NCBI GenBank assembly: GCA_039683575.1
Contig: JBDKRC010000302.1
Coordinates: 11,173 to 75,172, forward strand
DNA: 64,000 nt
Direction: 5' to 3'
Source of the DNA: Armatimonadia bacterium
GTDB taxonomy: Bacteria; Armatimonadota; Zipacnadia; Zipacnadales; UBA11051
Position 1 is the stretch's first letter. The number at the start of each line of letters is the position of its first letter. The notes beneath the pieces are model-generated. The model was not told the DNA's origin and did not search any database. It saw nothing but the letters and a program-made list of their open reading frames with translations. A program made the position numbers and the translations under genes. Shown here one piece after another: positions 3,909 through 38,361 of this stretch.

Positions 3909-5174
3909 ATGCGAATCGCCATCTACCACAACGTACCGTCCGGCGGCGCCAAGCGTGTGGCTTACGAACACTGTAAGCGTCTTGTAGCCGCCGGGCATGA
4001 GGTCACCGTCTTTCAGCCCAGCACGGCTGACCTCGCCTTCTGTGACTTGGGTCAGGTTGCCACTCGGCAAGTAACGCTGCCCCTGAGCATGGGACACTTG
4101 CCCGCGTCGGCGCCCACGAAGCTGCGCATGGCAATCTACCACGCCAAGCTTGCGAGGGGCTATCGGAACCTGGCCCGGCTGCAGGCCCAGATCGCCCGGC
4201 AGATTGACGAAGAGGGCTTTGACCTGCTCTACGCCCACCACGACATGTATGAGACGGCTCCGTCGCTCCTGCGGCTGACGCGCCTGCCCTCGGTATATTT
4301 CTGCCAGGAGCCGTCACGTGGTGTATTTGAGGCTCCCCTGGTAGCCGAAGGCCACCCGCCGATGTGCGCTCGAAACTTCACACACATGGTTCTAAAGTCC
4401 CTGTTTGGCAACCCCACCGGCGAGGCCATGTTGCGCTTCCGCCGCATGAATGAGCGGATCAATACCCTGGCGGCGACCCTGGTGCTCGCCAACTCGACCT
4501 ACTCCTGCGAGTCCATCCTGCGCGCGCACGGGTGCGTAGCCCGCCGCTGCACGCTCGGGGTGGATGTGGATTTCTTCACGCCGGGGGAGGAGAAGCAGGA
4601 CTATGTGCTGTCCGTCGGCGCTTTCGACCCCCTCAAGGGCTTCCGTTTCCTGATCCGCGCGCTGGGCTGCGTGCCCTCCGGCAGCCGCCTGCCACTCATA
4701 ATCGCCGGAGACCGCGGCGTCGCTGGGGAAGAGGGGAGGCTGCACGAACTGGCGCGCGAGTACGGTGTGGAATTGACCACCCGCCCCGCAGTGAAGGATC
4801 AGGACCTGCGCGACCTGTACCGCAAGGCGCGCCTGTTCCTGTATGCGCCCTACATTGAGCCGCTGGGGCTCACACCGCTGGAGGCGATGGCGTGCGGCAC
4901 TCCGGTGCTGGGCGTGCGCGAGGGAGGGGTCCGTGAGACCGTCGTGGACGGACACTGTGGGCGTCTGGCGGACCGCAATGAGGAGCAGTACGCGCAGATA
5001 ATGGCAGAGTTGCTTGCCGATGGCGGCCAGACCGACGCTCTGGGCCAGCGTGCGGTGCAATACGTGCGGGACAACTGGACCTGGGACCGGTCGGTGGAGG
5101 AGTTGCTGGCTGCTTTCGCGCTGGCCCGCGAGGGACGCCCCTCGTGTGCTCCACAGCCCGCTGGACCGGCCTGA
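3909..5174 (+). CDS. Glycosyltransferase family 4
   Basis: Start at MRIAIYHNVPSGGAKR; EPLGLTPLEAMACGTPV motif. Confidence 0.9.
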   Translation: MRIAIYHNVPSGGAKRVAYEHCKRLVAAGHEVTVFQPSTADLAFCDLGQVATRQVTLPLSMGHLPASAPTKLRMAIYHAKLARGYRNLARLQAQIARQIDEEGFDLLYAHHDMYETAPSLLRLTRLPSVYFCQEPSRGVFEAPLVAEGHPPMCARNFTHMVLKSLFGNPTGEAMLRFRRMNERINTLAATLVLANSTYSCESILRAHGCVARRCTLGVDVDFFTPGEEKQDYVLSVGAFDPLKGFRFLIRALGCVPSGSRLPLIIAGDRGVAGEEGRLHELAREYGVELTTRPAVKDQDLRDLYRKARLFLYAPYIEPLGLTPLEAMACGTPVLGVREGGVRETVVDGHCGRLADRNEEQYAQIMAELLADGGQTDALGQRAVQYVRDNWTWDRSVEELLAAFALAREGRPSCAPQPAGPA

Positions 5175-5200
5175 GCGTGTTCGATGCTGATGAGATCACT

Positions 5201-6589
5201 ATGACCGTGACCGGCGGCGGAGAACCCGGCACAGGCGGTATCCCGGCGGCGGCCCCGGGGACAAAGGAGGCAGTGACCATCGACTCCCGACGCGAGCTCT
5301 TCATTGACAGCTATCTGGTGGACAACCTCTCAGGTACCGCACGGCGGCGCATGCACAACCCGCAGTTCCGCCAGCCCGTACTGCAGTTGGACGCCCCCTG
5401 TGAAGGTACAGTCTCAGCGTACTTCGCTGTGATGCGGGTAGAGGGCAAGATAAGGCTCTACTACCGCGGCCAGGGCAGCGAGGGGAAGCCGGAGACCACG
5501 TGCGTGGCAGAATCCGAGGATGGTATCAATTTCACGAGGCCGAAAGTGGGGATCTTCGAGTGGGAGGGCAACAAGGACAACAACATTGTCTGGCTCGGAG
5601 AAGGCAACCACAACTTCACGCCCTTCCTTGACCCCAATCCGGCGGCAGCGCCCGAGCAGCGGTTCAAGGCACTGGCGAGCGTGGGGCCGAAGGGGCAACT
5701 GGCGACCTTCGTCTCCGCCGACGGGTTTGCCTGGAAGCGCCTGCGCGACGAGCCTGTCATCACCAAGGGGGCCTTCGACTCGCAGAACCTGGCCTTCTGG
5801 GACCCGCTGCGCAAGCTCTACGTGGAGTACCACCGCGGCTTCCGCGACGGTGTCAGAGACATCATGACCTCCACTTCGGCCGACTTCCTCACCTGGACCG
5901 AGCCGCAATGGCTGGATTACGGGGAGGCGCCGGCTGAGCACCTGTACACGAACGCAATCACACCATACTTCCGCGCTCCGCACCTGTACGTGGGGCTTCC
6001 GAACCGTTACGTCCCGGGCCGGAAGAAGATTGCCACCCACAAAGAGGACGGCGTCGATGACGCCCTGCTGATGAGCAGCCGTGACGGCCTGCACTTCGAG
6101 CGCTGGCGAGAAGCCTTCCTGCGGCCGACGCTCGATGACGAGAACTGGACCGACCGCAACAACTACATTGCGTGGGGCATCGTGCCGCTGAACGAGCGCG
6201 AGATTGCGATCTACTCAACTGACCACTACCGCCACCCCACTGCCCGCGTGGTCCTGAACACGATCCGTACCGACGGCTTCGCCTCCCTCTATGCTGACGC
6301 CGAGGGCGGCCAGGCCCTCACCCGGCCCTTCACCTTCAGCGGCAAGCGCCTCGAGGTCAACTACGCCACGTCGGCGGCTGGTAGCCTGCGCTTTGAGCTC
6401 TGTGATGCCACGGGCAAGGCTCTGCCTGGCTTCAGCATGGCCGACAGCGAGTTGCTCTATGGCAACGAACTGGCCCACACCGTGGCGTGGCGCGGCGGAA
6501 CGGACGTAAGCGCGCTGGCGGGGCAGACGGTGCGGCTGAGGGTCAACCTAGAAGACGCGGACCTGTTCTCAGTGATGTTCTGCCCGTAG
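5201..6589 (+). CDS. Hypothetical protein, beta-propeller glycoside hydrolase-like (GH32/43 clan-like) with C-terminal beta-sandwich
   Basis: RRELFID N-terminus; Asp-box-like repeats (AESEDGINF, VSADGFAW, TSADFLTW, SSRDGLHF); RTDGFASL. Alternative GTG start at 5273 after AAGGAGG. Confidence 0.65.
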   Translation: MTVTGGGEPGTGGIPAAAPGTKEAVTIDSRRELFIDSYLVDNLSGTARRRMHNPQFRQPVLQLDAPCEGTVSAYFAVMRVEGKIRLYYRGQGSEGKPETTCVAESEDGINFTRPKVGIFEWEGNKDNNIVWLGEGNHNFTPFLDPNPAAAPEQRFKALASVGPKGQLATFVSADGFAWKRLRDEPVITKGAFDSQNLAFWDPLRKLYVEYHRGFRDGVRDIMTSTSADFLTWTEPQWLDYGEAPAEHLYTNAITPYFRAPHLYVGLPNRYVPGRKKIATHKEDGVDDALLMSSRDGLHFERWREAFLRPTLDDENWTDRNNYIAWGIVPLNEREIAIYSTDHYRHPTARVVLNTIRTDGFASLYADAEGGQALTRPFTFSGKRLEVNYATSAAGSLRFELCDATGKALPGFSMADSELLYGNELAHTVAWRGGTDVSALAGQTVRLRVNLEDADLFSVMFCP

Positions 6590-6683
6590 AGGGCCGGCAG
6601 AGCCCTGCACCATCCCTTTCTGCAGGAGTGGGCGGGCTTGCGCGGAAGCTTGGGGGGGCATTTACGAAGGGGTTTGTCTCTGG

Positions 6684-6998
6684 TCAGCGCTCTGTGGGCC
6701 GTTGGGGGGCCTCATCAAGCCTCGCAAGTCGCAGCGCCAAGGCGGCCACCGCTGCATGTACAGGCACGTCGTCAAATCCCTGGTCGAGGTGCCAGGCAAC
6801 GAGGCCGTGGCCTAGCATTGCGAGCCGGTTGAGGGGCGGAGTGGGCTCGGCCAATAGTGCCTCCGCTTGCTTCAGCCTGTCCAGTACTGACCGCGGCAAG
6901 CTACCAGGCTCGGCGTCAGCGCGCCTGCGCACGTCTTGTATCTCGGCCAGTAGCTCGGCCTGCAGCCTCTCGCTCCACTTTGGTGGCATCAGATCCAC
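6684..6998 (-). CDS. Small alpha-helical protein, candidate immunity protein (Tsi6-like)
   Basis: 104-aa ORF 10 nt downstream of the toxin-like lipoprotein; GAGGGG RBS (ATG at 6989 is an alternative start); amphipathic helices, no signal peptide. Confidence 0.55.
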   Translation of the reverse strand: MDLMPPKWSERLQAELLAEIQDVRRRADAEPGSLPRSVLDRLKQAEALLAEPTPPLNRLAMLGHGLVAWHLDQGFDDVPVHAAVAALALRLARLDEAPQRPTER

Positions 6999-7008
6999 GC
7001 CCCCTCGC

Positions 7009-7707
7009 TCACAGCGCCGCCCCCGCGGGATACCGCAACTCTGATACCAAGTCTATGGCGTCGTCGTTCAACTCCGCGTGGTCGCCTGCCCACACCGTGG
7101 CCTCAGGAACGTATATCTGCTGCCCACCTCCGGTGGCATAGGGGCCGAAGACTTCAGTATTCCAGGTCATGTCGGCGCAATAGCCCGTGATGAGCACCAC
7201 CCCGGCCTTCAGACGGTAGAGACTAACACAGTAGGCATTGTTGTCCAGTGGTAGGGCGAACAGTCGGCAGGCCTCGTCCGGCAGGTACATGTAGTCCTGC
7301 TGCGACGGTGTGTACCAGCGGCCGAGCTTGTGCTCCGGGTCACCCCAATAGCGCGTGACATAGGTCGGGTAGCGCAGTTGCAGCACCTGCAGGGAGTGCG
7401 ACCCGGAAGTGTCGTAGGAACTCAGGAGTTCGGTCGCCTGCTCCCGCGTCCTGCCGGTGACTTGCGCAACCGTCGTCAATACTGCGGGGTCTTCACGAAC
7501 TCCTGACGCCAGAAGCGAACCGTAGATGGCGGTACCCGGCACCCCTGTGGCCTGAAACCGCAGAGTCGTGCCATCAACGACAACCGTACTCCATGTGGCG
7601 ACTTCGCCAGCCCCGCCGCCACAACCGCCGAGCGTCAGCAGCGCAGCCAGCACCAGCAAGGCAACCGCCAACAGGCGCACCTCAAAGCTCGGACGAAAGC
7701 GTCTCAT
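7009..7707 (-). CDS. Lipoprotein with TNT/Tse6-like NAD glycohydrolase / ADP-ribosyltransferase-fold C-terminal domain
   Basis: AGGAG RBS; signal MRRFRPSFEVRLLAVALLVLAALLTLGG-C (lipobox); domain motifs RYWG..GRWYTP..FALP..N..G..AD.TW..GGGQQIY. Confidence 0.6.
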   Translation of the reverse strand: MRRFRPSFEVRLLAVALLVLAALLTLGGCGGGAGEVATWSTVVVDGTTLRFQATGVPGTAIYGSLLASGVREDPAVLTTVAQVTGRTREQATELLSSYDTSGSHSLQVLQLRYPTYVTRYWGDPEHKLGRWYTPSQQDYMYLPDEACRLFALPLDNNAYCVSLYRLKAGVVLITGYCADMTWNTEVFGPYATGGGQQIYVPEATVWAGDHAELNDDAIDLVSELRYPAGAAL

Positions 7708-7754
7708 ACCAGATATCTCCTGCGTCATGATCGTGGACAGGTTGCAGGGGTAGT

Positions 7755-9398
7755 TCATTCAGAAGGGCCTACTGTGACTGACACGTTGCCGCCTGCCCCT
7801 CCCAGCGCCCGTAGTTCGCACAGCACAGGGGCGTCTCCCTCCGCCGCCACGAACCACTCAAGGTCGCGACCGTCCGTCAGGCCGCCGAGATGCCCCAGTG
7901 CCCGGTGCCCCGCTTCCGACAGCAGCCGAACACCCTTGGCGGGATGAAACTCGACGCGCACGCCCTGCAAACGCCTCAGGCCGCGTCCACGGTTGGACAC
8001 GTGGGTAGGGAACTCGCCGCGGTTCGCCACCCGGGCGCGGATGCGGTACGTACCGTCCGCGATGCGCTCGGCTCGCGCGTCCTCTACCATTACGCGCGGC
8101 TGCCGGCTCGCATGGGCCAGGGTGAATTGGTACGTGCCGGCCGCAATGCGCTTCAGGTCGTCCAGCGTCGGGTTGGACACGTGCCGGTGCAGCAGTCCCC
8201 CAATCTCGGCGTGCCCGAGTTGTGGGTGATCGAAGGGCGTCCAGGGCGCAAAGACCGGGTCCCGCTTCTTCTGCTGGTCCCACCAGGCAAGCGTGTGGCG
8301 CATCAGCGCCTCGTGCTCCTGGTCTGACCTTACCGCAAAGATGTCTGGCGTGGCGATCCCCGCGCTGTTCATCAGGATGCCCAGTTCGAACTCGAACACG
8401 AATAGTCCCAGGTGGCGGTAGCCAAAGTCGTGGAAATGCCCCCGCAGGTTGATATCGCGGGCGTCGTTGCGCCGGTACTTGACTACGGGGATCACCGGAA
8501 AGCCAGTGTGCTCGGAGCCGATCTCCGCCAACTCCCGCATGACCCTAACGTCTGCCTCATCCAGATCGCCGTCCGCGCCCGTCGAGGGCGGGCGCAGCAC
8601 CGCATTGGGGCCGGTGTGGTAGCCCAGGACTGCGAAGATATTCGGCCGGCTGAAGATGAAGTCGGCCAGGGCCCGCATTTCAGTCTCGCTGAAGGGAAAG
8701 TCACCGGCTCCCCACTGCTCGGGCTCGGGTCGCCAGTCATACGACCAGTTGCGGTTCCAGTCGAAGCTGCGACCCTCCACGGCGATGTGCTCGGTTCCAT
8801 CCCAGTCATAGACCATGCCCTCGGGCAATGTCCGGTAGAAGGGGGGCTTGCTCTCGCGCGTGCGCCTTACCAGCAGGCGCGGGTCCTCCGGGTCGGCCAC
8901 GAAGGGGCCATTCGGGTGCGGCATGCGCATCGTGAGGATCAGCCCGTCGCCGTTCACGTCTTCCTGGTAGAGCGTGTTGGCCACCCGGTCTGAGCGGTCC
9001 GTCCGACTGCGGATGCTTCCCGAGGTCGTCACGGCGAACTCGCCGCCATCCGGGTTGATCCTGGGGACGATATAGAAGGCTGTCCGCTGCAACACGTCTG
9101 ACTTGTGGGCGTCGGCGAGTAGCTGTCGCGCCGTGAACAGCGCGGCATGGGTGCCAGCCAGCTCCACGGCATGTATGTTGCCATGGATGAGGTATGCCGG
9201 CTTGTCCTGCGCGGGGCCGGTGGAGGGATCGGTGATGGTCAGCAGATGGATCGCCCGGCCGTCCCGCGAGGTGCCGATGGACGACAGAGAGACGAGGTCG
9301 GGCCTACTGGCCGCCAGCGCAGTTACAAACTCGGTGAGTTCGTCATAGCCAAGAAAGTGCTCAAAGTGGAGCTCCGGGAGGTTACCAGTAGCGGGCAT
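7755..9398 (-). CDS. M14 family zinc carboxypeptidase
   Basis: IHAVE (HxxE), INPDG, DWNRNW, PFSETE, YHT motifs; AAGGAG RBS. Confidence 0.9.
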   Translation of the reverse strand: MPATGNLPELHFEHFLGYDELTEFVTALAASRPDLVSLSSIGTSRDGRAIHLLTITDPSTGPAQDKPAYLIHGNIHAVELAGTHAALFTARQLLADAHKSDVLQRTAFYIVPRINPDGGEFAVTTSGSIRSRTDRSDRVANTLYQEDVNGDGLILTMRMPHPNGPFVADPEDPRLLVRRTRESKPPFYRTLPEGMVYDWDGTEHIAVEGRSFDWNRNWSYDWRPEPEQWGAGDFPFSETEMRALADFIFSRPNIFAVLGYHTGPNAVLRPPSTGADGDLDEADVRVMRELAEIGSEHTGFPVIPVVKYRRNDARDINLRGHFHDFGYRHLGLFVFEFELGILMNSAGIATPDIFAVRSDQEHEALMRHTLAWWDQQKKRDPVFAPWTPFDHPQLGHAEIGGLLHRHVSNPTLDDLKRIAAGTYQFTLAHASRQPRVMVEDARAERIADGTYRIRARVANRGEFPTHVSNRGRGLRRLQGVRVEFHPAKGVRLLSEAGHRALGHLGGLTDGRDLEWFVAAEGDAPVLCELRALGGAGGNVSVTVGPSE

Positions 9399-9586
9399 GC
9401 TGCTCTCCTTTTGATAGGCAAAGCACGGCTGCACTGGTCGTTCGACGCAGATGCTACGTCTACCTGCGGCGAACTCACGCTCGTGAGATTGCGGGAGGAC
9501 ACTGCCCCGGAGGTGGTGAACCAGCCATCAACTCCTGCGACATGACCTCAAAGCAGCGCTGGCTGCAGAAACCAAAGGACTAACAC

Positions 9587-10417
9587 ATGACTACATACGC
9601 AATATCAACCTGGCTGGTCGGGCATGTACCCACCGACGAGGCAATCCGCCTCATGGCCGATTCCGGCTTCACACGGACCGAGCTCTCCGCCGACTGGGCG
9701 CCGATTGTCATTGCCTGGGAGCAGGCCCCTGTGGCTGTGTGCGCCCAACTGGCCGCGGCAGGGATCTCCGTGCCCTCGGTGCACAGCCCCGAGATGGGCC
9801 GGCGCCTGGACCTGCCGGATGACCAGGAGCGTTTGGCTTCTATACAAGACAATATCCGCTACTTCGGCCTGATGCAGGCCTGCGGCATCCCAGAGATCAT
9901 CATCCATCCAGTGAGCGGCGCGGCCGGCCAGGACGGCGCGGCCTGGGCAGCGGTGCCGGGACGGGTCCGGGAGTCGCTGAGAACGCTGGCAGAGGCGGCT
10001 GGGGAAGCCGGCATCCGGCTGGCAGTGGAAAACCTCGCTGTCACAGGCCGACCGGGGTCAACGATGGCCTCGATTCTGGAGATGATCGACGGCCTCGGCG
10101 ACCATGTGGGCCTGTGCATGGACATCGGCCACTCCCAGCAGGCGCATCTGGACCTGCTTGACGAGCTTTCCGTTGCCTTGTCGTCGGGGAAGCTATTGAC
10201 TCTTCACCTGCACGATGTCGATCCGGCCGGCAAGGACCACTACATCCCGGGCGAGGGCTGCCTTGACTTCGAGCCATACCTGGGGATGCTGAGGGCTCAT
10301 GGCTATGACGGCGGCCGGACCCTGGAGATCGCAGCAGCGCCCGCGGAGATAGTTGCGGAGCGGATCCGGCAGGCGGCAGAGGCGCGGGAGCGGTGGCAGG
10401 CAAGCGATAGTTGTTGA
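9587..10417 (+). CDS. Sugar phosphate isomerase/epimerase (xylose isomerase-like TIM barrel)
   Basis: LAVEN, CMDIGH, LHLHD, DHYIPGEG, TLE metal-binding motifs. Confidence 0.85.
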   Translation: MTTYAISTWLVGHVPTDEAIRLMADSGFTRTELSADWAPIVIAWEQAPVAVCAQLAAAGISVPSVHSPEMGRRLDLPDDQERLASIQDNIRYFGLMQACGIPEIIIHPVSGAAGQDGAAWAAVPGRVRESLRTLAEAAGEAGIRLAVENLAVTGRPGSTMASILEMIDGLGDHVGLCMDIGHSQQAHLDLLDELSVALSSGKLLTLHLHDVDPAGKDHYIPGEGCLDFEPYLGMLRAHGYDGGRTLEIAAAPAEIVAERIRQAAEARERWQASDSC

Positions 10418-20954: not shown

Positions 20955-21268
20955 CAGTGACCTCCGATCAACGTGACTGTGGCCAATGCAAAGGCAGGCG
21001 TGAGTGGCCTTCGAAGTGGCCGACCCCGTGCCTGGTGAAGACAGGCCGGGCAACCAATTCGCCGTCGCGCCTGCGATTGCCTACCCGTGGCAGAGAAGTG
21101 GATTTGGACCGCGATATAAGCGTCTTCAGGTACATCTTGGGTAGAACTTCCAAAACATCTTCTTCAGTCGCCTCGTCCACTACCAAGAGTGTACCGTATT
21201 GGGCAAAGGTGGTCGATCTACAGCAGCCTGCCCAGTATCAAAACTGGAGGAGACCTGGAGGAGAGGAA

Positions 21269-24200
21269 ATGTCTAAGGGAGTGCCATGTTTTTTGCTGAT
21301 CGGGGTGGTCGTCGTTAGCATCGCTGTGTCGGCCTCGGCCGGCTCAGCCGCGCTGCAACTTGGTGGACGTGTCTGGAATGACACCAACGGGAATGGCGTT
21401 GTCGATCCCGGCGAACCTGGTCTGAACGGCGTTACGGTCAAGCTTTCGTGGACAGACGCCACTGGAACGTCCCGTTCCGCAACGACGTTGACTGCGAGCG
21501 GTTCATACGCTTTCTCTAACCTGCCAGCGGGAGCTTACAAGGTGAGTGTCGTCTCGGCTCCCGGCGCCACGGTGCAGACCTACGACGCGGATGGCCTGAG
21601 AACGCCCAACGCCATCACCGTCAACTTAACCCAGAGCGTTCAGAATGTGAGCTTCGGTTACCGGTGCACCAATCCGGCGCAGATCGGTGACACGGTATGG
21701 AATGACCTCAACGCCGACGGCTTCCAGGATCCGGGGGAACTCGGAATTCCCGGAATACCCGTGGCGCTCTACCTCGATGGCGTGTACCTGATGTCGCAGA
21801 CGACGGACGACAACGGTCACTACCTGTTTACGGACCTGACCCCCGGTACCTATACCGTCACGACGGACATGTCCGGCCACCCGGAGTTAGTCCAGACTTT
21901 CGACTACGATGGCATAGATACGCCTAATACGGCAACCTATACCGTGGGTCCTGATGAAGTCTTCGCCGACGACACTGGCAACTCAACCGGCCTGGACTTC
22001 GGCTATCGCTGTCCCCCCGGTGACAGTGGGGTGATCGGGGACACGGTATGGCTGGACCAGAATGCCAACGGCATCCAGGACAACGGCGAGGCGGGGATAC
22101 CCAACGCACGCGTCAAACTCTACCTCAACTCAACCCTGATTGGCACCAAGGTGACCGATGCCGGTGGGCACTACCTGTTCACGCATCTGTTACCAGGGGC
22201 CTACAAGGCGTATGTGGTTCCCGCATATCTCCCGCCGGGGCTGACCCAGACCTTCGACTATGACGGGTTGGCGACGCCAAACACGGCCAGGTACACCCTC
22301 GACCTGGGCGAGGTCTTCGCCGATGACGAGGGCAACTCCACTGGCCTGGACTTTGGCTACCGGTGTGAGGTCGTCAATACGGGCCAGATCGGTGACACCG
22401 TCTGGACCGACACCAATGCCAACGGCGTGCAGGACGTGGGCGAGACGCCACTGGCCGGTGTGCCTGTCATGCTCTACCTGGGCACGACCCTCATCGGCAC
22501 GCAGACCACGGACGCCAATGGTCATTACCTGTTCACTGACCTCGCGGCCGGTACGTACACGGTAAAGACCGACATGTCCGGCTTCCCCACCCTGGTCCAG
22601 ACCTTCGACTATGACGGTCTCGCGACGCCCAATGCGGCCACATACACTCTCGCTGAGGGCGAGATCTTCGCCGATACCACCGGCAACTCCACGGGCCTGG
22701 ACTTCGGCTATCGCGTCCCGCCCCGGATTGGCAAGATCGGTGACACGGTGTGGACCGACACCAATGCCAACGGCGTGCAGGACGTGGGTGAGACGCCACT
22801 GGCCGGTGTGCCTGTCATGCTCTATCTGGGCACGACCCTCATCGGCACGCAGACCACGGACGCCAATGGTCATTACCTGTTCACGGGCCTCGCGGCCGGT
22901 ACGTATACGGTAAAGACCGACATGTCCGGCTTCCCCACCCTGGTCCAGACCTTCGACTATGATGGTCTCGCAACGCCCAATGCGGCCACGTACACTCTCG
23001 CTGAGGGCGAGACCTTCGCCGATACCACCGGCAACTCCACGGGCCTGGACTTCGGCTATCGCGTCCCGCCCCCGATTGGCAAGATCGGTGACACGGTGTG
23101 GTACGACACCAACAAGAACGGCGTCCAGAACGTCGGCGAGCTTGGGATCCCTGGCGTGCGCGTCAAGCTCTATCGGGGCACCACGCTGATCGGCACCAAG
23201 ACCACGGGCGCCGCCGGTCACTATCTCTTCACGGGCCTGGCAGCAGGCAATTACAGGGCCTATGTTGTGGCCTCAACGCTGCCGGCGGGAGTGGTACAGA
23301 CCTTCGACTATGATGGCCTGGCTACGCCCAACAGCGCGAAGTACACCCTGGCTGAGGGTCAGACCTTTGCCGATACGAAGGGCAACTCCATCGGCCTGGA
23401 CTTCGGGTATGTCACGGTCGCGCCGAGTGTGACGCTGGAGAAGAAGGCTGACGTCACTGAAATCGACCCGAACAAGTCGGTGACATACACCTACACCGTG
23501 AAGAACACTGGTGGACTGACGCTCAACAACGTGGTAGTCAAGGACGACAACGCCACGCCGAACGATACCAGTGATGACTTCGTCGTCGGCACCATACCCA
23601 GCCTGGCTCCCGGAGCCCAGGCGGTGTTGACCCAGACCAAGATCCCGCCGGTTCCTGTGTGTGACGTGATCGACGGCACAACGATCGGCGCCGGGTACCT
23701 GGCTGCTGAAGTTCTGGCCAACGGCGACGTGAAGCTGACCTTCGTCGAGAGCCGGGCTATCAACGACAACACCTACGGGAACACTGCCTCTGGTTGGGGC
23801 TCAAAGGGCCATACGTTCAACAACCTCGTTGGCAGTGACAAGGCGCAGTTCCGCGTGACCGATGCCAGCGGCAACGTCGTGATGGAGTTCTACCTGGACT
23901 ACATCACCGCCTCCAGTCTCTACCCTTCCGGCTACGGGACCCTGGGCGCCACTGGCGGCGACGGCAAGATGGTAATCGGTAGCGCCTCCAATCTCGTCAG
24001 TTACACCACCTCACTAACGCAAAACCTGAACCAGTCATCGGCCTACTACGGCTTCACCGTGAATTCGCCGGCTGAGCCCGATCCCAACTGGAACTACAAC
24101 ATCATGTACCAGGCGGTGATAAAGGGCTCTGTCTTCGGGACGGCGGGCTTCGGAGGCTTCACCATCCCGAGCGTGCACAACTCGCCGCCCAAGATCGGCG

Positions 24201-24826
24201 ACAACCTGCTCGAGCCCAAGCCTTGCGAGGCCGACGTGACGAATACGGCCAGCCTGACGGCGACGGCCAGCGATGGCACGGTCCTCACGGCCACTGCCAC
24301 GGCTAGCGTTCACATAAAGTGGTTCGAGTCGCCGGGGCCTTTCACAACGTACAAGCAGGACCAGTGGGGCGGTTCCACTGCCAATTCGCTGCTGGCGGGC
24401 AAGTTCGCGACGCTGTATCCATCGGGCTTGACCGTCGGAGGAACCTACACCATCGCTCTCACCTCCGCGGCGGCGGTAGACGCCTTCCTGCCGCAGGGCG
24501 GCGGACCGAACGTGCTGACCATGAATTACACCAACCCGACGAAGACCTCGGCAGGCGAGTTGGCGGGACAGGTGGTCGCGCTCAAGCTGAACGTGGACTT
24601 CTCTGAGGCCGGGTTCACGAAGAAGGGCCTCGCGAGCCTGAAGCTTACCAAGGACCTCGCCGGCTGGACGGTCGCGCAGGTGCTTACGTTGGCACAGACC
24701 GTGCTGGGCGGCAACAAGGGGGCTCTGCCCTCTGGTGTGGACCTGAACAAGCTGAAGGACATCTGCAAGAAGACCAACGAGAACTACGAGAAGGGTACCA
24801 ACGATCGAGGGTATCTCACCCCGTAG
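21269..24826 (+). CDS. Secreted surface/adhesin-like protein: six SdrD B-like repeats, DUF11/DUF7507-like Ig domain, C-terminal helical domain
   Basis: Strong RBS and signal peptide; six (I/L)G(D/G)xVWxDxNxxG...FGY units; TYTYTVKNTG...VTNTA domain. Confidence 0.85.
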   Translation: MSKGVPCFLLIGVVVVSIAVSASAGSAALQLGGRVWNDTNGNGVVDPGEPGLNGVTVKLSWTDATGTSRSATTLTASGSYAFSNLPAGAYKVSVVSAPGATVQTYDADGLRTPNAITVNLTQSVQNVSFGYRCTNPAQIGDTVWNDLNADGFQDPGELGIPGIPVALYLDGVYLMSQTTDDNGHYLFTDLTPGTYTVTTDMSGHPELVQTFDYDGIDTPNTATYTVGPDEVFADDTGNSTGLDFGYRCPPGDSGVIGDTVWLDQNANGIQDNGEAGIPNARVKLYLNSTLIGTKVTDAGGHYLFTHLLPGAYKAYVVPAYLPPGLTQTFDYDGLATPNTARYTLDLGEVFADDEGNSTGLDFGYRCEVVNTGQIGDTVWTDTNANGVQDVGETPLAGVPVMLYLGTTLIGTQTTDANGHYLFTDLAAGTYTVKTDMSGFPTLVQTFDYDGLATPNAATYTLAEGEIFADTTGNSTGLDFGYRVPPRIGKIGDTVWTDTNANGVQDVGETPLAGVPVMLYLGTTLIGTQTTDANGHYLFTGLAAGTYTVKTDMSGFPTLVQTFDYDGLATPNAATYTLAEGETFADTTGNSTGLDFGYRVPPPIGKIGDTVWYDTNKNGVQNVGELGIPGVRVKLYRGTTLIGTKTTGAAGHYLFTGLAAGNYRAYVVASTLPAGVVQTFDYDGLATPNSAKYTLAEGQTFADTKGNSIGLDFGYVTVAPSVTLEKKADVTEIDPNKSVTYTYTVKNTGGLTLNNVVVKDDNATPNDTSDDFVVGTIPSLAPGAQAVLTQTKIPPVPVCDVIDGTTIGAGYLAAEVLANGDVKLTFVESRAINDNTYGNTASGWGSKGHTFNNLVGSDKAQFRVTDASGNVVMEFYLDYITASSLYPSGYGTLGATGGDGKMVIGSASNLVSYTTSLTQNLNQSSAYYGFTVNSPAEPDPNWNYNIMYQAVIKGSVFGTAGFGGFTIPSVHNSPPKIGDNLLEPKPCEADVTNTASLTATASDGTVLTATATASVHIKWFESPGPFTTYKQDQWGGSTANSLLAGKFATLYPSGLTVGGTYTIALTSAAAVDAFLPQGGGPNVLTMNYTNPTKTSAGELAGQVVALKLNVDFSEAGFTKKGLASLKLTKDLAGWTVAQVLTLAQTVLGGNKGALPSGVDLNKLKDICKKTNENYEKGTNDRGYLTP
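22388..23101 (+). repeat. Intragenic tandem repeat, 348-bp period (116 aa)
   Basis: ATCGGTGACAC recurs at 22388, 22736 and 23084; the first two units differ by roughly a dozen substitutions by eye. Confidence 0.95.
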
Positions 24827-24950: not shown

Positions 24951-26348
24951 CTATTCTGTGGGTGGCGGCGGCGGAGGCGGCATTGGAGGGCCACCAGGTC
25001 CTGGGGGAGCACCAGGGCCACCAGGCATCGCCGTCTTACTGACCTGGTAGTAGAAGGGATACTGCAGGGGCTGGGCCATCGCCTTCACGTGGCCATCCAC
25101 GAAGGAGTAATTGATCAGGTTGTCATGCCGCGGCGGCCAGGTGACCGAGGCCCCGGCTTGCTTACCCTTGTCGTAGGCATTGAGGTTCAGCAGCTTGGAG
25201 TCGAAGTGGCAGACCGTCCAGGCAGGCTCGTCGATGAGAGCCATGGTGACGCGGCTGAGCTTGTAGTTCATCGCGTAGCCGTAGCCTTCCTTGACGGCGG
25301 GGCAGCGGAAGACTTCCGTGTTCCTCACGTATGGTTCGCTGACGGTACACCACTTGTCAGCGGGCGCGAAGCGCTCGTCGTAGTCCTGCGCGTACTGAAG
25401 CATGGCCAGCATCGCTTGCTTGAGGTTGCTTTGGCAGGCCGCGACTACCGGGCCGCCAGTGGGTCCGTCCGGTCCCTCGCCAACCTGTTCGAGGTCCAGG
25501 GGCTCGTTGGGTCCCAGCAGGCGCACGCCTCCGGACCACTGGGGTTGCCATCCTGTCTCGGTGCGCTCCAGCGGGACCGCGAGGTGCAGTTCGGCCTGGC
25601 CCTGAAGCTTGAGCACCGCTCTATCGTCCGCCACCTTGCGGCTGACGATCTCATGGCGGGCGGTCTCCGGCGTGATCAGGACGAGGCCAAGGTAGTCCGA
25701 CCACACGCCCCCGCCTTGCATGCTCATCATGGCGCGGAAGAAGTCCCCCCCGGACATGAGCTTGAGTTGGTCTCCGATAGCCTGGCGGGCTTGGAGGTTA
25801 TCCGTACCTTGCAGGTCAACCGCCCAACCGCCGCCGCGTTTGACGAGGGCGAGGTACTGCGGGACCTTGAGAGTCATGATTACGCGGCCGACGCCGCTGG
25901 TGCCAGCGGTCTTGACCTCGCCGACTTTGGCAGGTTGGCCCATGAGCAGCGACATCATCTGCTCTTCACCGGTCTGGAAGCTCTCCTTCTGCGCGGCAAC
26001 GACGTATTGGGCGAAGTCCTCTTTGGTGGTCTCGCCGAGGGACTGCCGGTCAAGCATCTCCCAGGCAGCCGCGGCTTCGCGCTTGCGGAGACTCTCGACA
26101 AAGTCGTTGGCAACCTTGTCGAGAGCTGCGGCTTCGTCGGCGGTAGCGTCCCTACCGGCCACAGTCGGGTCCGGCGCGACCGGCGCGGCCTGGCGTGGAA
26201 GCTGAGCCAAGGCGCCGATGAGGGCCTGTCGAGCGGCGGCGGAGGGGCCCCAGGTGAAGCCCGCCTGATGGAGGCTGACCAGCATCAGCACGCAAAGACA
26301 AAGACACAACAGGACGGCGACGACGGTGCGGCCGGCGGTGCGCGACAT
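24951..26348 (-). CDS. Exported protein: NTF2-like region plus DUF1559-like/H-X9-DG C-terminal domain, poly-Pro tail
   Basis: Hydrophobic N-terminus; CQSNLKQ..AMLQYAQDYDERF; H-DNLINYSFV-DG; no N-terminal GFTLIE prepilin motif. Confidence 0.7.
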   Translation of the reverse strand: MSRTAGRTVVAVLLCLCLCVLMLVSLHQAGFTWGPSAAARQALIGALAQLPRQAAPVAPDPTVAGRDATADEAAALDKVANDFVESLRKREAAAAWEMLDRQSLGETTKEDFAQYVVAAQKESFQTGEEQMMSLLMGQPAKVGEVKTAGTSGVGRVIMTLKVPQYLALVKRGGGWAVDLQGTDNLQARQAIGDQLKLMSGGDFFRAMMSMQGGGVWSDYLGLVLITPETARHEIVSRKVADDRAVLKLQGQAELHLAVPLERTETGWQPQWSGGVRLLGPNEPLDLEQVGEGPDGPTGGPVVAACQSNLKQAMLAMLQYAQDYDERFAPADKWCTVSEPYVRNTEVFRCPAVKEGYGYAMNYKLSRVTMALIDEPAWTVCHFDSKLLNLNAYDKGKQAGASVTWPPRHDNLINYSFVDGHVKAMAQPLQYPFYYQVSKTAMPGGPGAPPGPGGPPMPPPPPPPTE

Positions 26349-26432
26349 AGTGCTTTCCCCTTGTGCGGCAGCGGTTGTAAGGCTCTTCAAGGCTGGTGAT
26401 CTCCCACCGGGAGACCGGGCAGGTTAGCCGCC

Positions 26433-27788
26433 TCACCCACCGCCCGGCATGCGGACGGCCGGTATGGTGGCGAGGGATTCCCTTGGAAGGGCGCGGATGG
26501 GGCGGTAGAAGCCCTGGGCCAGACGATAGGATTGAGGGGCTACATGGCCATCCACGAAGGCGTAGCTGATAAGGCGATCATGCCGGCCGGGGCTCGGCAC
26601 GGAGGCGCCGGGCTCGGCATGCAGGTCGTAGGCATTGGGACGCAGGAGCGTGGAGTCGAAGAGCTCGGCAGTCGTCCATGGCTGGGTTACTTTGCCCAGC
26701 GGCAGGAGACTGAGCTTGTAGTTCATGGCATAGCCGTACTTGTCGGTGACGGCGGGGCAGGAGTAGAAGCCGGGGTCGGTCACGTAGTCGCTGAGGTCCG
26801 TGCACCAGCGGTTGGCCGCGGGGAGGCGCTGGTCGTAGTCGGCCATGTAAAGGCGCATCGCCTGGCTGAGTTGGCGGAGGTTGGCAAGGCAGCGTTTGGT
26901 CTTCGGCCCTTCCATTCCCGTAAAGATGTTGGCGTCGCGCAGCGGGGTCTCGGGGCGGATAACCTCCGGGTTCACTCTCCTATTGAGATGCCAGCCGCTG
27001 ACAGTGCGCTCGAGAGCAACCGCGAGGTTAACCTTCGCCTCGGCCTGGGCTGTAACCATGGCGCGATCGGCGGAGACCCGGCGGGTACTCACCTCGTAGC
27101 GGACGAGGTCGGGGACCATGACCAGGAGCGCGGCAATACCTTGATCGAGGCGCATACCGCGGTCCGGCATCATGGTGAAGTAGAGCTGGCCGATGTTGCC
27201 GGCAACCTGCTCTACCTGGCGGCCTGACTCGGTCTCGGCCAGGAGTTGCTCGGTGCTGTCGAGGTCAATGAGCCAGCGCCCGTCGCGGCGGACGAGCAGG
27301 TAGCTTTGCCGCGGGGCAAGGGTGATGATCAGGCGGGCAAGCCCATCGCTCCCGGAGGTGATGACCTCACCGAGTTCCACCCGGTTACCCTTGACGAAGG
27401 CAGATAGCAGAAAGTCCCCGGCGGAGCCGACAGAGGGGTCGTTGGGTACCGGTAACCTTTCCCTCCAGGTGCCAAAGGTCCAGTTCTGGCTGGTGGCGTG
27501 GCTCCAGGCCTGGTCGAACTGGCGGCCGCGGAGGGCCTCGAGGTAGGCCTTGAGGGTGGCGTCGAGAGCGAGGGCTTCATCTGAGGTGGCGGAGCGTCCG
27601 GCAAAGGCGGGGACCGGGGCAGCGGCCGGTTGCGCCTGCAGCGGCTGCAGGGCGTCCAGAAGGGCCTGACGAGCCAGTTGTGACTGGCCCCAGCCGAACC
27701 CGGCGTGGGGGGCGATCAGTAGCGCGATGAGCGAGAGCGAGAGAACCAGGGAGAAGGCAACTGCGGCACGACTGGTAACGCCAGGCAT
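26433..27788 (-). CDS. Paralogue: exported NTF2-like plus DUF1559-like/H-X9-DG protein
   Basis: CLANLRQLSQAMRLYMADYDQRLP; H-DRLISYAFV-DG; colinear similarity to 24951-26348 (ARQAL, DEA.ALD, LAV.LERT..GW, YGYAMNYKLS). Confidence 0.7.
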   Translation of the reverse strand: MPGVTSRAAVAFSLVLSLSLIALLIAPHAGFGWGQSQLARQALLDALQPLQAQPAAAPVPAFAGRSATSDEALALDATLKAYLEALRGRQFDQAWSHATSQNWTFGTWRERLPVPNDPSVGSAGDFLLSAFVKGNRVELGEVITSGSDGLARLIITLAPRQSYLLVRRDGRWLIDLDSTEQLLAETESGRQVEQVAGNIGQLYFTMMPDRGMRLDQGIAALLVMVPDLVRYEVSTRRVSADRAMVTAQAEAKVNLAVALERTVSGWHLNRRVNPEVIRPETPLRDANIFTGMEGPKTKRCLANLRQLSQAMRLYMADYDQRLPAANRWCTDLSDYVTDPGFYSCPAVTDKYGYAMNYKLSLLPLGKVTQPWTTAELFDSTLLRPNAYDLHAEPGASVPSPGRHDRLISYAFVDGHVAPQSYRLAQGFYRPIRALPRESLATIPAVRMPGGG

Positions 27789-27895
27789 GGCGCGACCCCC
27801 TTGCGGCACAAAGCCAGCCGCGTGTTTGGCAGAGCTTGCAGTAGGGTAACACTGGCAAAGTACCAGAGTTCCGTCGGCCACAACTATGGCGAGGC

Positions 27896-27923
27896 TTGCG
27901 CCCCATCTTGAGGGCGGTATAAT
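27896..27923 (+). promoter_or_regulatory. Putative sigma70 promoter
   Basis: TTGCGC-N16-TATAAT, 40 nt upstream of the beta-CASP ATG. Confidence 0.5.
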
Positions 27924-27963
27924 CATATCGTACCTTCTACGTCTTCTCTGAAAGGGCCTGCTG

Positions 27964-29466
27964 ATGAAGATCACCTTTCTTGGCGCGGCACGGACTGTCA
28001 CAGGGTCGCAATACCTGCTGGAGGCGGCGGGCAAGCAGATCCTGATAGATTGCGGCATGACACAGGGGCCGGAGCATCTGCGGCATCAGGGCCGGCCGGA
28101 TGCGGCAGTGGTTGACTACCGCACTGTGGACATGCTGCTGCTCACCCATGCCCACATTGACCATTCAGGTAACATCCCACTGATCACGCGGTTGGGCTTT
28201 CCGGGGCCGGTCTACGCCACCAGCGCGACGTGTGACCTGTGCAATGTGATGCTGCCCGACAGCGCACACATTCAGGAAGAAGATGCCAAGCACGACCTGC
28301 GGCGCTGGATCAACCAGGGCCGCATCGGGCCGGCGCCGACGCCCCTTTACAGCCTTCAGGATGTCGAAGCCGCGCTGAAGCTGCTCAAGCCCGTCAGCTA
28401 TGACCAAGTGGTGGACCTGGCGCCGGGCATTCGAGCCCGCTGGCGGGACGCAGGCCATATCCTGGGGGCAGCGTCCATCGAGATCTGGGTAGAGGAGACT
28501 GGGCGCACCACGAAGATCGTCTTTTCGGGGGACATTGGAAGCCCGGGACGGCCTGTAGTGCGCGACCCGCAGTACATAGACGACGCGGACTTCGTGGTGA
28601 TGGAATCCACCTACGGCAACCGGCGGCACGAGAGCAAGGAGATAAGTGCCGACCGCTTGCAGCGAATTGTGCAGGATGCGGTGCGCAACCACGGGCATAT
28701 CATCATCCCGGCCTTCGCAGTCGGACGGACACAAGAGTTGCTCTACGAGCTGAACAGGTTGGTCGAGCACAACCTGATTCCGCGCTTGCCAGTGTACGTG
28801 GACAGTCCGCTGGCCATATCGGCGACGAAGATATGTAGCATTCACCACGAGTGCTTTGACGCGGAGACGGCAGCGCTCCTGGCGGCGGGTGACGATCCGA
28901 TGGACTTCCCCGGCCTGAAGCTGACGCGCACGGTGGAGGAGAGCAAACAGATCAACCTCGTGCGTGGGCCTATGATCGTGATCTCGTCGAGCGGCATGTG
29001 CAACGGCGGGCGCATCAGGCATCACCTGCAGAATCATCTGGAGCATGGTCAGGACACGATCCTGTTTGTGGGTTACCAGGCGGCGGGGACGCTCGGGCGG
29101 GTGCTGCAGGAGGGGGCGCAGACGGTGAAGCTCTTTGGCGACAAGATTCGTGTGCGGGCACGCGTGAAGTCGCTACGAGCCTTCTCGGCGCACGCGGATG
29201 CCGATGGCCTGCTGACGTGGCTGTCGCATGTGAAGGGGCCGCAGGCAGTGTTCATCACACACGGTGAAGAGGACGCGGCGCTGGACTTTGCTGCGCTGGC
29301 CCACCGGCAATTGGGGGCGCCTACTCTCGTGCCCGAATATGGCGATGCCATTGACCTGGGGGATACCGGGAAGCTGGCGGAGGACCTCCAAGCGATGACC
29401 GAGACCTGGGCACGACCCGCTGAGATTGTGGAGGATGAGGCGGCCAGCGAAGATGACGCGGGCTAG
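27964..29466 (+). CDS. MBL-fold beta-CASP family RNA-processing metallo-hydrolase
   Basis: VTGS, THAHIDHSG, AGHILG, FSGDIG, MESTYG, PAFAVGRTQE, FSAHAD, THGE motifs. Confidence 0.93.
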   Translation: MKITFLGAARTVTGSQYLLEAAGKQILIDCGMTQGPEHLRHQGRPDAAVVDYRTVDMLLLTHAHIDHSGNIPLITRLGFPGPVYATSATCDLCNVMLPDSAHIQEEDAKHDLRRWINQGRIGPAPTPLYSLQDVEAALKLLKPVSYDQVVDLAPGIRARWRDAGHILGAASIEIWVEETGRTTKIVFSGDIGSPGRPVVRDPQYIDDADFVVMESTYGNRRHESKEISADRLQRIVQDAVRNHGHIIIPAFAVGRTQELLYELNRLVEHNLIPRLPVYVDSPLAISATKICSIHHECFDAETAALLAAGDDPMDFPGLKLTRTVEESKQINLVRGPMIVISSSGMCNGGRIRHHLQNHLEHGQDTILFVGYQAAGTLGRVLQEGAQTVKLFGDKIRVRARVKSLRAFSAHADADGLLTWLSHVKGPQAVFITHGEEDAALDFAALAHRQLGAPTLVPEYGDAIDLGDTGKLAEDLQAMTETWARPAEIVEDEAASEDDAG

Positions 29467-29568
29467 AGTTGCCGCAGATGGGCGGCAGTCGGAGCGCGGT
29501 TGAGGATATCAGCGACGGACTTGAACCTTGGCTTTGTGGCTGGCGACTAACTAGCGGAGGTAAAGGCC

Positions 29569-30252: not shown

Positions 30253-30270
30253 GGCGGGAGTGTGGTGGCA

Positions 30271-38244: not shown

Positions 38245-38268
38245 GATGGTTGGACTATCATCCAGGAC

Positions 38269-38337
38269 GCGTAGGCGGATTCATCCCTGAGCCCGCGCCG
38301 TTGCGGGGGCGTCGGTTCGAGACGAACCGACCTACGC
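38269..38337. repeat. GTAG-type REP doublet, copy 1
   Basis: GTAGGCGGATTCATCCCTGAGCCCGC...GTCGGTTCGAGACGAACCGACCTAC; a second copy lies at 59403. Confidence 0.85.
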
Positions 38338-38361
38338 GCCTGTTACATTGTTATTGTTAGA

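Follow-up and report, generated by a model that had tools for sequence, protein, structure and literature searches.

Toxins that destroy nicotinamide adenine dinucleotide (NAD+) and are paired with a cognate immunity protein are well known as the tips of type VI secretion system (T6SS), type VII secretion system (T7SS) or Rhs carriers. In this work, we describe two adjacent genes of the Armatimonadia bacterium assembly GCA_039683575.1 that appear to encode a lipoprotein form of such an enzyme together with its inhibitor. The genes lie in a 64,000-nt stretch of contig JBDKRC010000302.1 (positions 11,173 to 75,172) that was analysed as a whole and is called the window; all coordinates given for this genome are window positions, and every feature of the pair is read on the minus strand. 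The first gene (7009-7707, stop codon included) encodes P0001, a protein of 232 aa that its homologues, its AlphaFold2 (AF2) model and fold searches mark as a candidate toxin resembling TNT-type NAD(P)+ glycohydrolases. The second gene (6684-6998) encodes a partner, the putative immunity protein, of 104 aa when translated from the GTG at 6998 or of 101 aa when translated from the ATG at 6989, which lies three codons inside the GTG form and gives the database version P0019. On balance, and with slightly better than even confidence, we favour the reading that the pair is a two-gene toxin-immunity module in which an antagonistic enzyme is held in check by a cleft-blocking inhibitor; its NADase chemistry, lipidation and biological role are what we infer.

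The two open reading frames (ORFs) are separated by 10 nt, with the toxin stop codon at 7009-7011 and the GTG of the partner at 6996-6998, and sequence and model agree with the initial annotation on these coordinates, on the gap, and on the second ORF being a 104-aa helical protein that has no signal peptide. The third-codon-position GC content (GC3) is 0.74 for the toxin gene and 0.70 for the partner gene, and a word-indexed search gave the toxin 16 homologues besides itself (E 2.7e-115 to 1.5e-20); thus, both ORFs are real genes and not chance frames. Opened at its first ATG (7758), the toxin-like ORF would span 7009-7758. The start at ATG 7707 is favoured because the N-termini of the homologues begin there, because a ribosome-binding site read from the sequence, AGGAGA (7716-7721), sits 8 nt before it, and because a strain that is 96.6% identical lacks 1 nt at 7747, a loss that an extended reading frame would not tolerate. 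The same strain (DNA run X1) also carries a 1-nt insertion after 6628; both length changes fall just outside the coding regions, and the remaining differences recorded in or near the two genes are all substitutions. A wastewater metagenome run contains a full-length copy that is nearly identical, and two other runs contain partial copies. One 231-nt contig of metatranscriptome run X2 is identical to 6631-6861, a stretch that takes in the 3' half of the partner gene and the 53 nt that follow it, but such libraries can hold DNA and contigs cannot show transcription, so no conclusion on expression is drawn from the covered or uncovered parts. A promoter and terminator scan of 6400-9700 gave nothing above the shuffled expectation.

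P0001 has all the sequence hallmarks of bacterial lipoproteins, the substrates of signal peptidase II. Its N-terminus, MRRFRPSFEVR-LLAVALLVLAALLT-LGGC, combines a basic n-region and a hydrophobic core with the lipobox T-L-G-G-C; this signal peptide, through Cys29 of L-G-G-C, is encoded by 7621-7707 and the Cys29 codon by 7621-7623. As read from the printed sequences, the lipobox Cys is kept in 14 of the 17 family proteins in alignment A1 and at 12 of 13 related loci; the latter comprise three metagenomic loci (L002-L004) and ten loci from ten Armatimonadota genomes (L006-L015), each taken with flanks of about 1.5 kb. The lipoprotein assignment made at the outset is therefore borne out across the family, the exceptions being one fragment and an apparently non-lipoprotein secreted clade (P0017, P0018 and L004). 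In this long-form clade, L004 (3017-4210 of its own locus), P0017 and P0018 open with an ordinary signal peptide that has no lipobox and share a conserved C-terminal end in W. The clade has no partner gene downstream of the toxin gene, and in L004 a convergent GPR1/FUN34/YaaH gene takes that place; that locus has 69% GC and a PMT-type mannosyltransferase nearby.

The AF2 model of P0001, built from the 17 sequences of A1, has a mean predicted local distance difference test (pLDDT) of 84.9 and a predicted template modelling score (pTM) of 0.76, and it presents the mature protein of 203 aa as one compact fold. Disorder is confined to residues 27-34, right at the Cys that would be lipidated. The stretch after it had been read as a linker of about 70 aa, which the model contradicts: residues 36-100 (7408-7602) form a folded subdomain with a beta-hairpin and a further strand (39-44, 47-52 and 63-69) followed by two helices (74-84 and 88-95), the pLDDT is 90-97 in each 10-residue block of 41-100, and the subdomain touches the partner in the predicted complex. 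The remainder, residues 105-227 (7027-7395), is a palm-like catalytic core that is homologous to the C-terminal domains of polymorphic toxins.

The motifs of this core follow the order that the initial annotation had set out (R-YWG, G-W-TP, ALP-N, G-AD-TW, GGGQQ), namely TRYWG at 118-122, GRWYTPS at 129-135, ALPLDN at 151-156, GYCADMTWN at 175-183 and GGGQQ at 193-197. Seventeen sequences in A1 agree without exception on R119, G129, R130, W131, P143, A146, L152, P153, N156, G175, M180, G193 to G195, Q197, E223 and R225. In the distant sets the invariant residues are the LP of ALP and the Gln of GGGxQ only, with the Arg of YRYWGG in the consensus; the Gln itself is present in 17/17 family sequences and in 33/33 and 29/29 rows of the sets of relatives. 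Published work on solved enzymes gives these residues a likely meaning. TNT-type NADases share a single strictly conserved Gln (Gln1452 in Rhs1-CT), and each of F1386A, R1418A and Q1452A abolishes the toxicity of Rhs1-CT (PMC10539506). The vital triad of AfNADase is R129, F137 and Q194 (PMC7955114), and the residues named for TNT are R757, R780, Y765 and Q822, with the motifs DRxG and QRxL (PMC6398120). Gln197 (codon 7117-7119) would be the counterpart of the strictly conserved Gln, the residue that positions the nicotinamide ribose, and motif order makes the invariant Arg119 of TRYWG (codon 7351-7353) the candidate counterpart of TNT Arg757 and AfNADase Arg129. In the GRW motif, where Arg130 and Trp131 (codons 7315-7320) are both invariant, Trp131 is the candidate ribose-stacking aromatic and Arg130 is the main predicted contact of Asp69 of the partner. 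The spacing from Trp131 to Gln197, 66 residues, equals that from Phe1386 to Gln1452 in Rhs1-CT (numbers from PMC10539506). In a weak HMMER alignment (E 0.22) of the A3 profile with chain 6xtd_A, the LP and GGGxQ of the family fall on LPH and GGGTQ of Rhs1-CT, and by construct numbering the aligned Rhs1-CT residues are His1412 and Gln1452. From motif order, this spacing and this one weak alignment, we propose that R119, W131 and Q197 make up an R-aromatic-Q triad.

Fold comparison leads to the same class of enzyme. All matches shown for the toxin model through rank 16 of a Foldseek search against the PDB are TNT-type NADases (Tse6, Rhs1-CT, fungal NADases including AfNADase, and Tne2), headed by E values of 1.5e-3 for Tse6 (4zv4_C), 7.9e-3 for Tse6 with Tsi6 (4zv0_A) and 1.7e-2 for Rhs1-CT (6xtd_A), and the match probability collapses past these rows. 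VIA-align, which is independent of Foldseek, found 34 of 48,161 chains with Z >= 2, and its first six are again all TNT-type NADases. They are Tse6 (Z 8.3, root-mean-square deviation (rmsd) 3.3, 124 residues aligned), Tne2 (7.9, 3.4, 107), Rhs1-CT (6.8, 3.4, 108), AfNADase (5.1, 4.2, 113), the Fusarium enzyme FoNADase (4.9, 4.6, 114) and TNT (4.1, 3.6, 101), where the tool itself cautions that a Z below 8 can reflect a common arrangement. The next row has Z 3.4, and toxins of the ADP-ribosyltransferase (ART) fold lie below it at Z 2-3. As a lead only, the Atlas language-model feature search placed the toxin with TNT clusters at 0.91.

The sequence chain runs through the relatives of P0001. An exhaustive search of 1.84 billion representatives returned 91 proteins at E <= 1e-3, 23 at E <= 1e-10 and 11 at E <= 1e-30. 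Among the close relatives, some are short (215-249 aa), as P0001 is, and others are long (340-460 aa) and carry an additional N-terminal domain without a Pfam match; distant relatives match only residues ~105-205 of the query, at their own C-termini. A Pfam scan of 25 relatives found the domain carried on RHS repeats (P0045, and more weakly P0062 and P0072), PT-TG (P0046), PT-HINT (P0053), Ig-like arrays (P0054, P0079 and P0090), an M16 peptidase (P0042) and a peptidoglycan-binding protein (P0061); one more (P0082) had a sub-threshold TNT match (E 0.0037), and 10 showed no family at all. The C-terminal placement on Rhs, PT-TG and PT-HINT carriers marks the core as a polymorphic-toxin tip. Several short distant relatives (P0050, P0107 and P0102) also open with a lipobox or signal peptide, and bare exported forms of the domain are thus not unique to this clade. 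An hhalign comparison joined the family (A1) to 29 short distant relatives (A5) with 99.8% probability (E 5.8e-30, 100 columns), and 8 of those 29 match the Pfam TNT family (PF14021) at E <= 0.1; of these eight, only P0095 (34.7 bits) exceeds the 27-bit cut-off, and the other 7 fall short of it. Direct searches were less informative: sequence searches of the PDB with P0001 and the A1 profile gave nothing relevant, a pattern search of the genome contigs with A2 gave 10 pattern matches and no relative, and for both proteins of the pair NCBIfam gave only weak signal-peptide-like matches far below the cut-offs and Pfam gave nothing. Because the two fold methods, the sequence chain and the Atlas feature search agree, we place the lipoprotein, by predicted fold and transitive homology, in the TNT-type NADase superfamily, outside Pfam TNT. 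The TNT/Tse6/Tne2-type fold with a Gln in GGGxQ that had been suggested at the outset is thereby upheld, as that fold tops both structural searches and Q197 is invariant.

The partner is modelled by AF2 as a four-helix bundle (pLDDT 90.9). A word-indexed search with it found one other homologue only (P0020, 64% identity), and it was by examining the loci of toxin relatives that its distribution became visible. A partner homologue lies directly downstream of the toxin at 8 of the 13 related loci (L002, L003, L006, L007, L010, L013, L014 and L015; hidden Markov model (HMM) E 1.7e-24 to 3.1e-39), often overlapping the toxin stop codon. This co-conservation spans toxins down to about 35-40% identity, short and long forms alike. 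The ten partners aligned in A4 share W-[HY]-x-D-Q-G-F-x-x-V-P-x-H, with P32, L46, W66, D69 and H78 invariant; in the window the motif is W66-H-L-D69-Q-G-F-D-D-V-P-V-H78 (6756-6794) and covers the end of helix 3, a loop and the start of helix 4. These alignments are shallow, at 17 rows for the toxin (A1) and 10 for the partner (A4).

Complex prediction brings the two proteins together. Three runs each gave an interface score (ipSAE) of 0.93, against 0.00 for the best of 3 controls. Of 80 solved complexes, 58 attain that mark, as do 2 of 110 mismatched pairs; these counts hold only roughly here, since our own alignments were used. Contact agreement between the runs was at least 91%, and the pLDDT of the partner was at least 85. 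Since a solved Tse6-Tsi6 complex exists, some memory effect in the prediction is possible, yet there is no detectable sequence likeness. On the toxin side the predicted interface takes in 86-97 (contacts at 86, 89-90, 93-94 and 96-97), 123-131, 153, 155, 183-186, 199 and 204-211, which together make up the rim of the presumed cleft with its aromatic centre, the LP loop, the strand of Gln197 and, in addition, the N-terminal helices. The partner contributes residues 67-72 and 74-75, and the basic residues R33, R55, H61 and H67 are in the interface as well. The contacts with the least predicted error (toxin-partner) are 130-69, 130-68, 131-69 and 129-69. The partner is thus predicted to bind across the catalytic cleft and to set its invariant Asp69 on the invariant Arg130. 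The initial annotation had taken the small ORF for the partner of the toxin, and the co-conservation together with the ipSAE of 0.93 supports that choice at the level of a predicted complex.

A likeness of the partner to Tsi6 had also been suggested, and of this the generic four-helix bundle stands, whereas a sequence or Pfam match is absent. At E <= 1, none of 10 partner sequences matched the Pfam Tsi6 family (PF18660), and in five carrier genomes that family matched nothing at the partner genes at E <= 10, its sole match lying elsewhere in a 252-aa frame. The A4 profile run against all PDB sequences found no Tsi6 at E <= 10. By structure, Foldseek placed Tsi6 at ranks 19 (4zuy_B, E 1.0) and 36 (4zv0_B, E 2.0) with a template modelling (TM) score of about 0.5, and VIA-align placed 4zuy_A at rank 7 with Z 8.0 but an rmsd of 7.2, among 204 chains with Z >= 5 that include designed bundles and bacteriocin immunity proteins. 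In the Atlas search, language-model features put a Tsi6 cluster in second place (0.88, with 187 features in common), a lead only that the profile and fold searches did not confirm. A specific homology to Tsi6 is not supported, given that the profile, PDB-sequence and fold searches yield only the common four-helix bundle; the two proteins share an architecture and are only loosely comparable, with homology unproven. As the predicted anchor here is Asp69 on Arg130, the earlier remark that the acidic residue of Tsi6 is not obviously kept is irrelevant to this pair. By its sequence the partner is a putative new immunity family that lies outside every profile library tried.

The distribution of the pair is patchy. 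The toxin is present in 11 of 401 genomes of the phylum, that of the window among them, but in none of the 3 others of the genus or the 11 others of the family. Strong matches to the immunity profile occur in 7 of the 401 genomes, all of them toxin carriers and each at the toxin locus; weak matches (E about 2e-4) in three further genomes (G144, G097 and G179, in frames of 583, 583 and 128 aa) were treated as noise. The neighbourhood differs between all clades, and the two genes therefore travel as a unit. This patchiness has the flavour of a conflict system.

Beside the pair lie a convergent plus-strand gene for a 481-aa protein (5144-6589) and, 47 nt upstream on the strand of the pair, an M14 carboxypeptidase gene (7755-9434); glycosyltransferases and glycan-degrading enzymes make up the wider surroundings. 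The 481-aa protein has no Pfam or PADLOC match, and each of the three other genomes of the genus has its gene at 70-75% nucleotide identity. Synteny with these genomes ends at the 3' end of its gene, where the pair begins, and the pair is absent beside it. Within the 1.5-kb flanks, the 481-aa gene is all that the same-genus genomes share, which fits an accessory module and does not show an insertion. PADLOC, run on the pair and both neighbours, returned no defence-system match, and an anti-phage reading was dropped for that reason; a type II toxin-antitoxin reading was rejected as the toxin has an export signal.

In two relatives, L017 (5993-9679) and L019 (5950-8751), the product of the gene after the pair is a large protein in which Laminin_G_3 and chitobiase C-terminal domains occur, followed by an inosine-uridine nucleoside hydrolase domain that is fused in L017 and a separate next gene in L019 (8753-9646). 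L018 has a gene of like size and place, the domains being known for L017 and L019 only, and the gene after the pair in L002 (3296-6286) has Laminin_G_3 and GH123 domains. These neighbours may be due to chance or may reflect extracellular nucleotide or glycan processing.

Several other parts of the window deserve a record of their own. A large surface protein of 1289 aa (20957-24826, plus strand) has six SdrD B-like repeats and carboxypeptidase-regulatory-like domains (E 1.5e-118). Six consecutive minus-strand ORFs (24951-30927; 479, 541, 293, 92, 116 and 300 aa) have no Pfam match at E <= 1e-5 and lie beside a plus-strand tyrosine recombinase (31013-31900; Phage_integrase and SAM-like N domain, E 4.3e-46), with which they may form an island of unknown function. 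A minus-strand gene (33041-33664) encodes a prepilin-type N-terminal methylation motif and a DUF1559 domain, a class of protein that is abundant in Planctomycetota and some other phyla. Two adjacent minus-strand genes of [FeFe]-hydrogenase type (36469-40371) include one that combines NuoG-like, 2Fe-2S and thioredoxin-like ferredoxin domains in the manner of multimeric bifurcating hydrogenases. Finally, an ADP-ribosylglycohydrolase (33865-35184, plus strand; PF03747, E 2.1e-55) lies 27 kb from the pair, is not adjacent to it and is probably unrelated; ADP-ribosylglycohydrolases are described as acting as immunity proteins to ART toxins (Zhang et al. 2012).

Among known systems, the best structural matches of the toxin model are the T6SS and Rhs NADases with their immunity proteins, Tse6-Tsi6, Tne2-Tni2 and Rhs1-CT-RhsI1 (PDB 4ZV0/4ZV4, 6B12 and 6XTD). 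They share with our pair a GGxQ-like strand that bears the conserved Gln, an immunity gene placed directly downstream, and an immunity protein that occludes the active-site cleft, which is predicted here and set out as a principle in PMC10539506. They differ in delivery, as P0001 has a lipoprotein signal peptide for export and no PAAR, Rhs or transmembrane carrier. The T6SS sheath gene TssC/VipB gave no match in the 96%-complete genome of the window; the control search matched in E. coli. The statement of the initial annotation that no PAAR, Rhs, CDI (contact-dependent inhibition) or T7SS gene is nearby holds for 30 of the 51 gene calls (73-40371), the other 21 (40501-63812) lying outside the Pfam scan. 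The inhibitors differ too. The published pairs place a basic residue in the active site (Lys62 of Tsi6, Arg153 of Tni2 and His131 of RhsI1; PMC10539506), whereas the predicted anchor here is an Asp set on an Arg; the partner has no sequence relation to Tsi6, the protein to which this comparison was confined among the three.

TNT itself, the toxin of CpnT from Mycobacterium tuberculosis (PDB 4QLP), has in common with P0001 the fold class and the arrangement of an exported NADase with a cytoplasmic inhibitor; the genes for TNT and its inhibitor IFT share an operon (PMC6398120). Its carrier is an outer-membrane channel protein, in contrast to the lipid anchor proposed here, and its motifs DRxG and QRxL are replaced by TRYWG and EAxR-x-x-ALP. 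AfNADase (PDB 6YGE/6YGG) resembles P0001 in joining a TNT-type palm to an extra N-terminal subdomain, its alignment covering model residues 44-223, and also in being displayed outside the cell and, with the triad proposed here, in an R-aromatic-Q active-site logic (PMC7955114). However, the fungal NADases are homodimeric, glycosylated, disulphide-bonded and Ca2+-regulated, and the accessible part of PMC7955114 describes no immunity gene for them.

The myxobacterial SitA/SitI system had been named as an analogy to the pair, and it is similar in having a lipobox toxin gene followed by a cytoplasmic immunity gene and a toxin that acts in the cytoplasm without an injection machine (PMC8546572). 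The analogy fails on the escort domain, on modularity and on copy number. In the same source, SitA has an escort domain of ~375 aa that defines each family, modular and polymorphic nuclease tips, dozens of alleles per genome and a dependence on TraAB. P0001 has about six residues (Gly30-Glu35) between Cys29 and the fold and hence no escort domain, no match to its N-terminal part carries a different toxin domain, it is present in one copy, and its tip is NADase-like and not a nuclease; identity with SitA was rejected on these grounds. Other lipobox proteins of toxin systems include MafA helper proteins, Amoebophilus effectors with polymorphic C-termini and the immunity protein Imm65 (Zhang et al. 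2012), and the accessible text of that survey mentions no such NADase. A search of literature titles and abstract openings, in which subscription journals were largely outside coverage, found no description of a lipoprotein-anchored TNT-type NADase. The module is a new subfamily and architecture of a known toxin-immunity kind.

If the pair is a toxin-immunity module, the precursor would be made in the cytoplasm, where any enzyme that folds would be caught by a partner made from the same transcript, as the 10-nt spacing suggests. The unfolded prolipoprotein would be exported by Sec, lipidated at Cys29 and cleaved. The mature enzyme would then be anchored in a membrane beyond the cytoplasm, with no NAD+ there for it to attack, and it would do harm only where NAD(P)+ exists, either in the cytoplasm of another cell or where NAD+ has been released to the medium. 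It would most likely hydrolyse NAD+ and NADP+ to nicotinamide and ADP-ribose by means of Arg119, Trp131 and Gln197, which would stand in for the R-F-Q triad of fungal and mycobacterial TNT enzymes. In the producer, the cytoplasmic partner would clamp over the cleft with Asp69 on Arg130 and keep folded or arriving enzyme inactive. We hold the molecular part of this reading, an exported TNT-type enzyme with a cognate inhibitor, to be quite likely. We are more tentative about the role, in which the toxin would leave the producer on its outer membrane or in vesicles and act against neighbouring cells, with no dedicated injection system involved; this we put a little short of an even chance, and our overall confidence is a compromise between the two. 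Antagonism is favoured because the relatives are toxin tips, because the pair is patchy and mobile, and because the partner is tightly co-conserved and predicted to sit at the catalytic centre.

A number of observations weigh against this reading. On the molecular side, no Foldseek row for P0001 against the PDB reached E <= 0.001, the VIA-align tool rates even a Z near 8 as middling and a Z below 8 as a possible common arrangement, P0001 matches no Pfam family at E <= 1, TNT (PF14021) included, and its residues were mapped onto solved active sites by motif order, spacing and one weak HMMER alignment. On the side of the role, the best-defined contact is an acidic residue on the subfamily-specific Arg130, unlike the published basic-residue rule, no orphan immunity gene was found in the 401 Armatimonadota genomes, each of the two genes occurs once in the 96%-complete genome of the window, and 4 of the 11 toxin carriers (G352, G244, G265 and G286; 77-93% complete) have no immunity match anywhere. 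At three loci of family f28 (L009, L011 and L012; genomes 82-93% complete), the toxin gene is the sole shared sequence in a tblastx comparison of the ~1.5-kb flanks; this clade may have an immunity gene that is unrelated or strongly diverged. Receptor-binding and translocation domains are both missing from the short form. The N-terminus is not modular either: the initial annotation had called for homologues that share the lipoprotein segment and differ at the C-terminus, and none exists among the matches to residues 36-108 (proteins of 127-406 aa), of which 7/7 belong to the same family and carry the same C-terminal domain.

Much of this would suit an enzyme of another purpose. P0001 could be a surface or periplasmic ecto-NADase whose substrate is NAD(P)+ outside the cell, either to recover nicotinamide or ADP-ribose or to act against eukaryotic grazers. 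The partner would then serve only as a safety catch that shields the NAD+ pool of the producer from enzyme folding before export, and not from toxin sent by neighbours. The initial annotation had named a surface NADase of this kind as well. We consider this less likely than antagonism but a serious rival, as it would account for immunity genes that are never orphaned and are dispensable in 4/11 carriers, for the single copy, and for the missing translocation or escort domain. Fungal TNT-domain NADases sit on the cell surface and are not injected (PMC7955114), an inhibitor in operon with the enzyme is known from TNT and IFT (PMC6398120), and the Laminin_G_3 and nucleoside hydrolase neighbours in L017 and L019 could belong to the processing of nucleotides outside the cell. 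However, clades differ in their neighbourhoods, so the nucleoside hydrolase may stand there by chance. One would also expect vertical conservation of a salvage enzyme, but this one is in 11/401 genomes and in 0/11 others of the same family, and the homologous domains ride on Rhs, PT-TG and PT-HINT toxins.

The chemistry invites two further alternatives. TNT-type enzymes sit within the wider ART fold, and the lower VIA-align ranks (Z 2.0-3.0) hold Scabin, the CNFy domain, diphtheria toxin, iota-like toxin, C3larvin, ParT, TreX and TreTu, so that an ADP-ribosyltransferase that modifies protein or nucleic acid in a target cell, in place of a plain NAD+ glycohydrolase, might be considered. This is improbable, as the six top structural matches are all hydrolases and as region 3 of the family reads GGGxQ-I/L/F-Y, with an invariant Gln. 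The variable residue before the Gln and the lack of a Glu two positions after it argue for a hydrolase rather than a transferase, and ARTs and cyclases have Glu or Asp where AfNADase has Gln, the Gln being linked to plain hydrolysis (PMC7955114). Least probable of all, and to our mind very unlikely, is a catalytically dead TNT-like binding module whose partner is a cytoplasmic chaperone or regulator and not an enzyme inhibitor. P0001 does miss Pfam TNT and does not literally keep DRxG and QRxL (motifs from PMC6398120), but the invariant residues (R119, W131, LP and GGGxQ) are exactly those of the predicted cleft and the partner is predicted to cover that same cleft.

With the toxin-immunity module as the favoured reading, the family marks a gap in Pfam TNT coverage and presents the known enzyme class as a bare lipoprotein in a little-studied phylum, with a partner unrecognised by profile libraries. 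In its boldest form, which we regard as unlikely, a cytoplasm-acting NADase would be delivered as an outer-membrane lipoprotein by vesicles or membrane contact, without an injection machine or escort domain, and would be guarded by an immunity family with an acidic plug. If true, lipoprotein toxins would have a second route of transfer, used outside the myxobacteria by Armatimonadota and other uncultured bacteria, and immunity would be conferred by an acidic residue on a family-specific Arg, in contrast to the basic-residue mimicry of Tsi6, Tni2 and RhsI1. If the enzyme does not reach other cells, it would be a bacterial counterpart of the fungal surface NADases, with a partner that is purely self-protective; if it does reach them, the delivery of a cytoplasm-acting toxin would need no dedicated machine or entry domain.

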